Assembly (NCBI GenBank): GCA_000165345.1
Contig: CM000433.1
Location: forward strand, 416,001 to 480,000
Length of the DNA stretch: 64,000 nt
Reading direction: 5' to 3'
Shown here: positions 35,994-37,330 of the stretch, piece after piece
Layout of the letters: each line of letters begins with the position of its first letter
How positions within the stretch are numbered: position 1 is the first letter of the stretch
Notes under the pieces: generated by a model
What the model was told of the DNA's origin: nothing
What the model saw: only the letters and a program-made list of their open reading frames with translations
Database searches by the model: none
Position numbers and translations under genes: made by a program

Positions 35994-37163
35994 TTAATTA
36001 ACCAATAATTCCAACATAAAGTGTAGAAGTATAGTTACAATATGGATAGAAATACTATTTCCAATGAGAGAATATTGTTTCTTTAGATCTATATTAACAC
36101 CTTCAAACCAGTTATTTGGAAATCCCATTATTAAAAGCATTTCTTTAGGGTGGAAGCATCTTAGATTATCATTATCTCGAGCAGTTTGGAATCTTTGATG
36201 TTCTAAAATACGAGTATTAAATATATGACTATAAGTATCGTAATAATCAATAATACTTTTTTCAATTTTTTCGTGATTTTCAGAAAAATCAAAAAGAGGA
36301 CCACCACGACCTTTGGTTTCTATATAACTTTTTGTAAATGTGGTTGAAGCTTTGGAATTGATATTTACTATATCAAATTTGAAGGAAGGGTTATTTTTGA
36401 TAATATTTTTGGCAAATTGTTTGAGTAAATTAAAGCTTTCATAATCTATATCATTTGATTTCATTACCACATCACTAATTGAGTTTGGTATGTTATCTAT
36501 CATTTGGATTATTTGGTTATATTCATAAGGAAGAGAGCATAATAAATTTGAATATTCCAAAGGGATTTTTTCAGGTTTAAAGTCTTCGGTGTTTTTCTCT
36601 ATTGAATGGGATAAAAGAACATTACTTGCAATAGACTGACAGTTTTTTTGGTAGATTGATATTTTTAATTCGTTTAATTGCTTGATCAAATTTGCAGAAT
36701 CTTTTCTAACAGAAACACAGTAATACCTGACTCTCGTATTTGGAACTCCAATTAAGGTTGGCGACAGCATAAACTCAAATGTACAAAAGTTTAACTTTGA
36801 CAGCATTTTTATCATTTCTTTATGAGTATTTGAAGTTTCAAAGTTTGCAACATTTTCAACAAACCAAGCCTTTGGGAGTTTGTTTTGGCCATCTAATGAT
36901 AACATTAAGTCAATTAATTTTAGAAATGGTTTAGATCTTGAATCATCTGAATCTTTTCCTGAACCACCTTTAGTGAAAGGTTGACAAGGGGGACTAAGGA
37001 GCCAAATATCTGCATAAGGAATATCATTTATTTTTAAAGATTCAATATTTTTATTACATATTAAAGTATTTAAGAAATTTTTTTTATATGTAATGTTTGC
37101 ATACTCATTTATTTCAAAAGCTTTAATAATATCTAGCTTTAAATCAAAGTGGTTGTCTGATTT
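35994..37163 (-). CDS. DNMT2: tRNA(Asp) cytosine-5 methyltransferase DNMT2/TRDMT1, main 3' exon
   Basis: Contains motif IV LLSPPCQPFTKGG, motif VI ENVANFE, motif VIII PNTRVRYY, and the C-terminal GFPNNWFEG...LIGNSISIHIV. It is colinear with human TRDMT1. The frame is open upstream of the track's first Met, back to a TAG inside the intron. Confidence 0.85.
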   Translation of the reverse strand, partial: KSDNHFDLKLDIIKAFEINEYANITYKKNFLNTLICNKNIESLKINDIPYADIWLLSPPCQPFTKGGSGKDSDDSRSKPFLKLIDLMLSLDGQNKLPKAWFVENVANFETSNTHKEMIKMLSKLNFCTFEFMLSPTLIGVPNTRVRYYCVSVRKDSANLIKQLNELKISIYQKNCQSIASNVLLSHSIEKNTEDFKPEKIPLEYSNLLCSLPYEYNQIIQMIDNIPNSISDVVMKSNDIDYESFNLLKQFAKNIIKNNPSFKFDIVNINSKASTTFTKSYIETKGRGGPLFDFSENHEKIEKSIIDYYDTYSHIFNTRILEHQRFQTARDNDNLRCFHPKEMLLIMGFPNNWFEGVNIDLKKQYSLIGNSISIHIVTILLHFMLELLVN

Positions 37164-37246
37164 CTAAAAAATATTTCATTAGTTAAAAGAAAAATGTTAA
37201 TACGATTAAATGGAATTTAGCTGGAAATTTTTGATTTATTACTTAC

Positions 37247-37330
37247 AGAATTAAATGAAAAAGTTGCATTTTTTATTGAAAGATGTAATCCTCCTATACC
37301 ACTAAAGAATCTAATTTTCCCATTATTAGA
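37247..37330 (-). CDS. DNMT2: DNMT2 5' exon (motif I FFSGIGGLHLS); initiation codon unresolved
   Basis: On the minus strand it reads ...NNGKIRFFSGIGGLHLSIKNATFSFNS|gtaagt, giving an 83-nt intron 37164..37246 with a TTTTTTAG acceptor. There is no in-frame ATG between the upstream stop and FSGIGG, so the true start must lie in a further micro-exon or differ from this sequence. Confidence 0.6.

Follow-up and report, generated by a model that had tools for sequence, protein, structure and literature searches.

The DNMT2 gene of Cryptosporidium parvum has already been described, both in its identity and in its corrected N-terminus (Baptista et al. 2022; CpBGF annotation, 2025). [quoted passage not shown] 2022), and the CpBGF annotation, which carries a 431-aa DNMT2 model, was built by manual curation using RNA-seq and Iso-Seq (PMC12179316). 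The roles of motifs IV, VI, and VIII and the mechanism of the Cys residue are likewise available from the family literature (PMC5699548).

The window analyzed here, i.e., the whole 64-kb stretch of DNA, belongs to C. parvum chromosome 5, and its positions 35346..41092 were base-for-base identical to three independent chromosome-level assemblies of that chromosome (CP044418.1, CP029784.1, and CP141122.1). On its minus strand, at 37638..35994, lies a DNMT2/TRDMT1 gene whose derived 431-aa product matched WRK32354.1 of C. parvum residue for residue in an exact-sequence look-up, the latter being the model placed on CP141122.1 / GCA_035232765.1 by the CpBGF annotation. On CP141122.1 the gene occupies 473485..475129 (offset of +437491 from the window). 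The studied locus and cgd5_2100 / cpbgf_5002100 are the same gene, with zero differences, and the orthologs from C. hominis (PPS94294.1) and C. tyzzeri (TRY51482.1) have the same 431-aa model. Cryptosporidium proteins were also the top matches in the homology search.

Sequence and fold comparisons agreed with the original prediction in assigning this minus-strand C5-methyltransferase gene, which ends in a TAA at 35994..35996, to DNMT2. The product matched Pfam PF00145 (E=3.2e-38) across residues 18-421 of 431 and contains motif I FFSGIGG, motif IV PPCQPFT, motif VI ENV, and motif VIII RVRYY. The five best solved-structure sequence matches were all DNMT2 (E=6.8e-40 to 4.1e-30, with M.HhaI at 9.5e-12), as were the top nine Foldseek matches in the PDB, which covered human, moth, fission yeast, and Entamoeba proteins (E=6.5e-25 to 2.9e-22, with M.HhaI at 8e-17). 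The AlphaFold model of the 431-aa product reached a pLDDT of 88.7 and a pTM of 0.91, and in an alignment of 58 sequences the columns P101, C102, E145, N146, V147, R186, and R188 were invariant, together with motif I. The C. parvum gene belongs to DNMT2/TRDMT1, nearer to it than to DNMT1/DNMT3 or to bacterial C5-methyltransferases. The position of the CFT motif reads TFTKSY in C. parvum, with Thr in place of Cys, and the same or a similar variant was found in all Cryptosporidium sequences; we rejected the notion that this is a peculiarity of the genus, TFT being the commoner variant among the retrieved homologs (43 non-Cryptosporidium sequences vs 26 with CFT, out of 70). A six-frame hmmsearch of the 64-kb window recovered no other C5-methyltransferase, as the original prediction had held; the sole other match, a 12-bit hit at 49569..49757 to the ENV-region consensus, was discarded as a chance match. 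No tRNA gene, including the tRNA-Asp substrate, was found in the window.

The 5' end of the gene had been left without a start codon in the original prediction, which closed the gene at 37330. Two of its observations in this region were accurate, namely an 83-nt intron running from GTAAGT to TTTTTTAG, which is real and lies at 37246..37164, and the lack of any in-frame ATG just ahead of motif I in the C. parvum read-through frame, where a stop followed by TESNNGKIRFFSGIGG (nine codons, TESNNGKIR) sits behind two TGA codons. Of the explanations that had been offered, a further 5' micro-exon is the correct one, and the gene reaches up to an ATG at 37638. The proposed structure comprises the following features:

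Positions 37577..37638, minus strand: DNMT2 exon 1, 62 nt, with the ATG at 37638..37636, encoding MTANNEEKCSNKEDKKLSVM and bases 1 and 2 (GA) of the Glu21 codon.
Positions 37311..37576, minus strand: DNMT2 intron 1, 266 nt, GTGAGT...TTAG, phase 2, which holds a TA microsatellite.
Positions 37247..37310, minus strand: DNMT2 exon 2, 64 nt, encoding the third base of Glu21 and FFSGIGGLHLSIKNATFSFNS (motif I, the AdoMet-binding loop).
Positions 37164..37246, minus strand: DNMT2 intron 2, 83 nt, phase 0.
Positions 35994..37163, minus strand: DNMT2 exon 3, with motifs IV, VI, VIII, TFTKSY, IX, and X (GNSIS) and the stop codon.
Positions 37321..37323, minus strand: an out-of-frame ATG, intronic and +1 relative to motif I, at which erroneous 397-aa models (MGKLDSLV...) start.

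On the reverse complement, the open reading frame of exon 1 reads ATG ACT GCT ... GTA ATG GA with GTGAGT directly after it, ~250 nt upstream of the frame-closed piece that bears motif I, and an AG stands directly 5' of ATTCTTTAGTGG (motif I). Translation of DNMT2 would start at the ATG at 37638 within this 62-nt first exon; removal of the 266-nt phase-2 intron (37576..37311) would then join 37577 to 37310, bringing GA and A together in a Glu codon right before FFSGIGG with the frame kept, and removal of the 83-nt phase-0 intron would give a 431-aa product in which no catalytic motif of the C5-cytosine methyltransferases is missing. The spliced coding sequence amounts to 1296 nt, is in frame with canonical splice sites, and encodes a protein starting MTANNEEKCSNKEDKKLSVMEFFSGIGG. 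Exon 1 also stands out as a bump in GC content, at 27-29% vs 9-18% in its flanks. Once exon 1 is spliced on, motif I is completed to EFFSGIGG; a Glu precedes motif I in 101 of 102 non-Cryptosporidium homologs, the remaining one having Asp, and the spliced model alone supplies this Glu, the read-through frame giving Arg. In phmmer, LSVMEFFSGIGG aligned with human LRVLELYSGVGG from residue 3, and in the AlphaFold model the exon-1 residues 13-22 form the first beta-strand with block pLDDT values of 89-98.

We extended this analysis to 11 species (C. parvum, C. hominis, C. tyzzeri, C. meleagridis, chipmunk genotype I, C. ubiquitum, C. canis, C. felis, C. xiaoi, C. ryanae, and C. serpentis), in all of which the gene order Chromo, RWD, Elf1(-), DNMT2(+), FCH(-), Nipped-B is retained. 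An ATG-initiated short open reading frame that ends in GA directly before GT(A/G)AGT was present in 11/11 species, as was an AG before ATTYTTYAGYGG, and therefore the position and phase of intron 1 are invariant, the intron splitting the Glu codon before FFSGIGG at the same point in every species. The length of the intron ranges from 58 nt in C. meleagridis to 266 nt in C. parvum, and exon 1 measures exactly 62 nt in seven species, with zero indels among close relatives over the same comparisons in which intron 1 accumulated 28-208 gap columns. Immediately 5' of the acceptor, C. parvum (GGGAAAATTAG) and C. ubiquitum (GGGGGAAAAAAATAG) are separated by an indel of 4 nt (non-3n), which is incompatible with coding sequence. 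Exon 2 is conserved at 88-100% without indels. Nine nucleotides past the acceptor of intron 1, there is a second AG that is in frame (AG, ATTCTTTAG, and TGG in succession; window 37302..37310, minus strand); it occurs in 11/11 species because Phe-Phe-Ser is encoded TTY TTY AGY, and its use, joining 37577 to 37301, would delete FFS from motif I.

These comparisons, along with annotation curated by others, are what the junctions rest on, and we place the probability that the three-exon model of C. parvum DNMT2 is correct at roughly 0.9. The start ATG at 37638 is less certain than the splice junction of exon 1, because the first ~16 codons show no third-position bias (10/9/8 variable columns across the codon positions) and the N-terminal tail has a low pLDDT (53), residues 1-10 forming a floppy tail in the AlphaFold model. 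This N-terminal tail, i.e., the first ~16 codons, is weakly constrained, and the case for exon 1 is carried by the conservation of its length, phase, and splice sites together with the conserved last five residues.

The other two explanations that had been offered for the missing start codon, a non-AUG start and an incomplete or wrong sequence, amount to placing the start next to motif I, either at a non-AUG codon or at the ATG at 37323 put in frame by a 1-nt correction (ATG GGn AAA ATT AGA TTC...). Such a start would match the C. ubiquitum model MGEKNRFFSGIGG; in that species the ATG is in frame, and the public model P0002 starts from it. In C. parvum, the frame would be restored by one added base in the run of GGG or of AAAA. 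However, the region is identical in the three chromosome-level C. parvum assemblies, and the ATG is likewise out of frame in C. hominis, C. tyzzeri, and chipmunk genotype I, on which grounds a one-base sequencing error at this point was rejected. The read-through frame is moreover closed by stops 1-21 codons upstream of motif I in 11/11 species and lacks an in-frame ATG in 9/11, the stop lying only one codon upstream in C. serpentis, and the stretch concerned differs between species by non-3n indels. A product started here would also have Arg where 101/102 homologs have Glu and would lose most of strand beta-1, and C. ubiquitum too carries the conserved upstream exon and its splice sites. A start adjoining motif I is therefore already largely refuted, and we consider it extremely improbable.

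Public gene models for this locus diverge widely. In GenBank, this one gene is represented in C. parvum and C. hominis by at least five mutually incompatible protein models, all falling into one 90% cluster:

303 aa (XP_001388272.1): an internal ATG taken as the start.
353 aa: exon 1 spliced onto PPCQ.
397 aa: the out-of-frame ATG 37323 taken as the start (MGKLDSLV), with a junction to exon 3.
407 aa (QOY41642.1 / CPATCC_002218): exon 1 joined through an upstream GTAATG donor directly to exon 3 (37585 to 37163), motif I being skipped.
431 aa: three exons, as derived in the present analysis.

Measured against the 431-aa DNMT2, the 303-, 353-, 397-, and 407-aa models are cut short or wrongly spliced. 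In the other Cryptosporidium species, most models either miss the first exon or motif I or read it wrongly: that of C. ubiquitum begins at an intronic ATG, that of C. serpentis takes an AG lying 9 nt too far in the 3' direction (..LDGIGG), and the N-terminus is missing from those of C. meleagridis, C. canis, C. felis, C. ryanae, and chipmunk genotype I. One and the same three-exon structure is supported at each of the 11 loci.

The 407-aa model deserves separate consideration, since it raises the question of whether the main mRNA skips exon 2, passing from the GTAATG donor to exon 3 and encoding a protein without the AdoMet-binding loop that would be predicted to be catalytically dead. Exactly this structure is found in the IOWA-ATCC GenBank annotation, whose source paper describes its introns as 100% RNA-seq supported. 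Yet the same paper terms the gene a "complete" Dnmt2, and the later, manually curated CpBGF model from the same group contains exon 2, as do that group's models of C. hominis and C. tyzzeri. The GTAATG donor is missing from five species (C. canis, C. felis, C. xiaoi, C. ryanae, and C. serpentis), in contrast to the invariant GT(A/G)AGT; the strong, indel-free conservation of exon 2 and the invariance of motif I across the DNMT2 family point in the same direction. We thus regard skipping of exon 2 in the main mRNA as very unlikely, and the three-exon transcript is retained as the preferred reading.

The extension of the gene to the ATG at 37638 also changes the interpretation of the region between DNMT2 and its divergent neighbor ELOF1, which had been described as a 515-bp shared promoter centered on a (TA)n tract. 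The divergent arrangement was right, but the true spacer measures 207 bp, and most of the supposed 515 bp consists of intron 1 and exon 1 because DNMT2 extends further than had been thought. Both the start-codon anomaly and the (TA)n-centered promoter arose because exon 1 was missed. The repeat itself is a genuine microsatellite:

Positions 37446..37473, no strand assigned: (AT)14 microsatellite inside intron 1, within an imperfect tract at 37434..37473 (TRF, 89% matches).

Its pure run of 28 nt compares with a longest TA run of 13 nt in 100 Markov simulations. The tract lies within intron 1, 104-131 nt downstream of the exon 1 donor, and was not centered even in the 515-bp interval, whose midpoint is at ~37588, the tract having its own at ~37455. 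The longest pure TA run in intron 1 falls from 28 nt in C. parvum to 12 in C. tyzzeri and 8 in C. hominis, with 8 in chipmunk genotype I, 6 in C. felis, and 0 in the other six species. The length of the tract differs greatly from species to species, but it was the same in the three complete C. parvum assemblies, all apparently IOWA-type lines. In C. meleagridis, the 58-nt intron 1 (L007 2545..2602) matches C. parvum over its first ~29 nt and its last ~29 nt, and its interior, including the region of the TA tract, has been cleanly deleted. On each side, upwards of 20 C. parvum contigs built from short reads (Logan) end inside (AT)14 (window 37448 and 37467), a pattern compatible with either slippage variants or coverage dropout; since all of these contigs end inside the tract, tract length at the isolate level is unreadable from them. 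Elsewhere in the 64-kb window, TA runs of at least 12 nt occur only in a second TA microsatellite at 58996..59033, made up of two neighboring pure runs (13 and 25 nt). Neither intron 1 nor the spacer produced an Rfam match to a noncoding RNA with E<=1.

The original prediction had treated the tract as a nucleosome-excluding promoter element common to DNMT2 and ELOF1, the length of which would tune expression. That the tract is a true microsatellite, that it differs in length among close species (28, 12, and 8 nt), and that short-read contigs break inside it are all in keeping with this proposal. It nonetheless sits past the exon 1 donor, inside an intron, is missing in most species, has been lost in C. 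meleagridis with both genes intact, and shows one length in three C. parvum assemblies, and the element that is conserved is found in the 207-bp spacer instead. We hold such a promoter function to be highly unlikely; the (AT)14 tract is a C. parvum-specific intronic microsatellite, part of the transcribed intron sequence and not of the promoter. There is a slim chance that this C. parvum-specific expansion alters splicing, through exon-2 skipping or use of the GTAATG donor, so that a fraction of the transcripts would yield a catalytically dead DNMT2 without motif I; if true, this would explain how a 407-aa model came out of an RNA-seq-guided annotation. The residual interest of the locus lies in the disagreement among public models and in this small chance of real alternative splicing around exon 2.

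Between the two genes, the following features were delimited:

Positions 37639..37845, no strand assigned: DNMT2-ELOF1 intergenic spacer, 207 bp from ATG to ATG, 21% GC, presumed bidirectional promoter.
Positions 37724..37730, minus strand: E2F-like TTCCCGC, 92 nt upstream of the DNMT2 ATG.
Positions 37846..38592, plus strand: ELOF1/Elf1 transcription elongation factor, single exon, 248 aa, Pfam PF05129 (E=8.5e-27).

The Elf1 domain spans residues 2-79 of ELOF1 over the full profile, the translation contains the four-Cys zinc ribbon CPFC...CRVC, and the gene is syntenic with DNMT2 in all species. Past the 79-residue zinc ribbon, ELOF1 carries a ~170-residue C-terminal extension that is acidic and Ser/Asn-rich (38086..38592, plus strand), and its orthologs range from 203 to 250 aa. 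The spacer measures 140-307 bp in the other 10 species, and TTCCCGC was detected in it in 10/11 species, C. serpentis being without it, always on the DNMT2 sense strand and 67-119 nt upstream of the DNMT2 ATG. In the window, TTCCCGC occurs seven times vs 1.65 expected, the six other copies being at 39, 15311, 50716, 56262, 58285, and 58568. The canonical E2F consensus is TTTSSCGC, which the candidate site TTCCCGC matches at 7/8 positions. DNMT2 is transcribed divergently from ELOF1 over the 207-bp spacer, with a putative role for this conserved E2F-like site. [quoted passage not shown] Bidirectional E2F-type promoters of C. parvum likewise combine a short AT-rich spacer, divergent genes, and a single E2F-like site, and by this analogy DNMT2 and ELOF1 likely share a short promoter of the same type, which would be ordinary for the genome.

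The biology of the locus is itself not new, and the practical value of these results lies in the quality control of public DNMT2 gene models; for phylogeny, drug-target work, and arguments that a protein "lacks motif X", use of the three-exon model is advised.

By family inference, Cys102 of motif IV would act as the nucleophile in a Michael addition at C6 of cytosine (PMC5699548), and a methyl group would pass from AdoMet to C5 of C38 in tRNA-Asp(GUC), possibly in other tRNAs too. On this basis, C. parvum DNMT2 is predicted to be a tRNA, not a DNA, methyltransferase. Compared with the solved DNMT2 structures, the C. parvum protein shares only 23-28% identity, has TFT in place of CFT, and is ~100 residues longer than the solved chains; the TM-score is 0.6 when normalized by query length vs 0.8 by target length. 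Most of the extra residues are inserted, largely as helices, after motif VIII and ahead of the target-recognition domain (residues ~200-300; window ~36140..36440, minus strand), with a low-confidence stretch around residues 231-250 (block pLDDT values of 59-78). The fold is nevertheless the same as that of human DNMT2/TRDMT1 (1G55, 9HGM), S. frugiperda DNMT2 (4H0N), S. pombe Pmt1 (6FDF), and Entamoeba Ehmeth (3QV2). With these structures C. parvum DNMT2 also shares the set and order of the motifs (I, IV PPCQPFT, VI ENV, VIII RxR, IX, and X), and, like them, it consists of the catalytic domain only, without a regulatory N-terminus.
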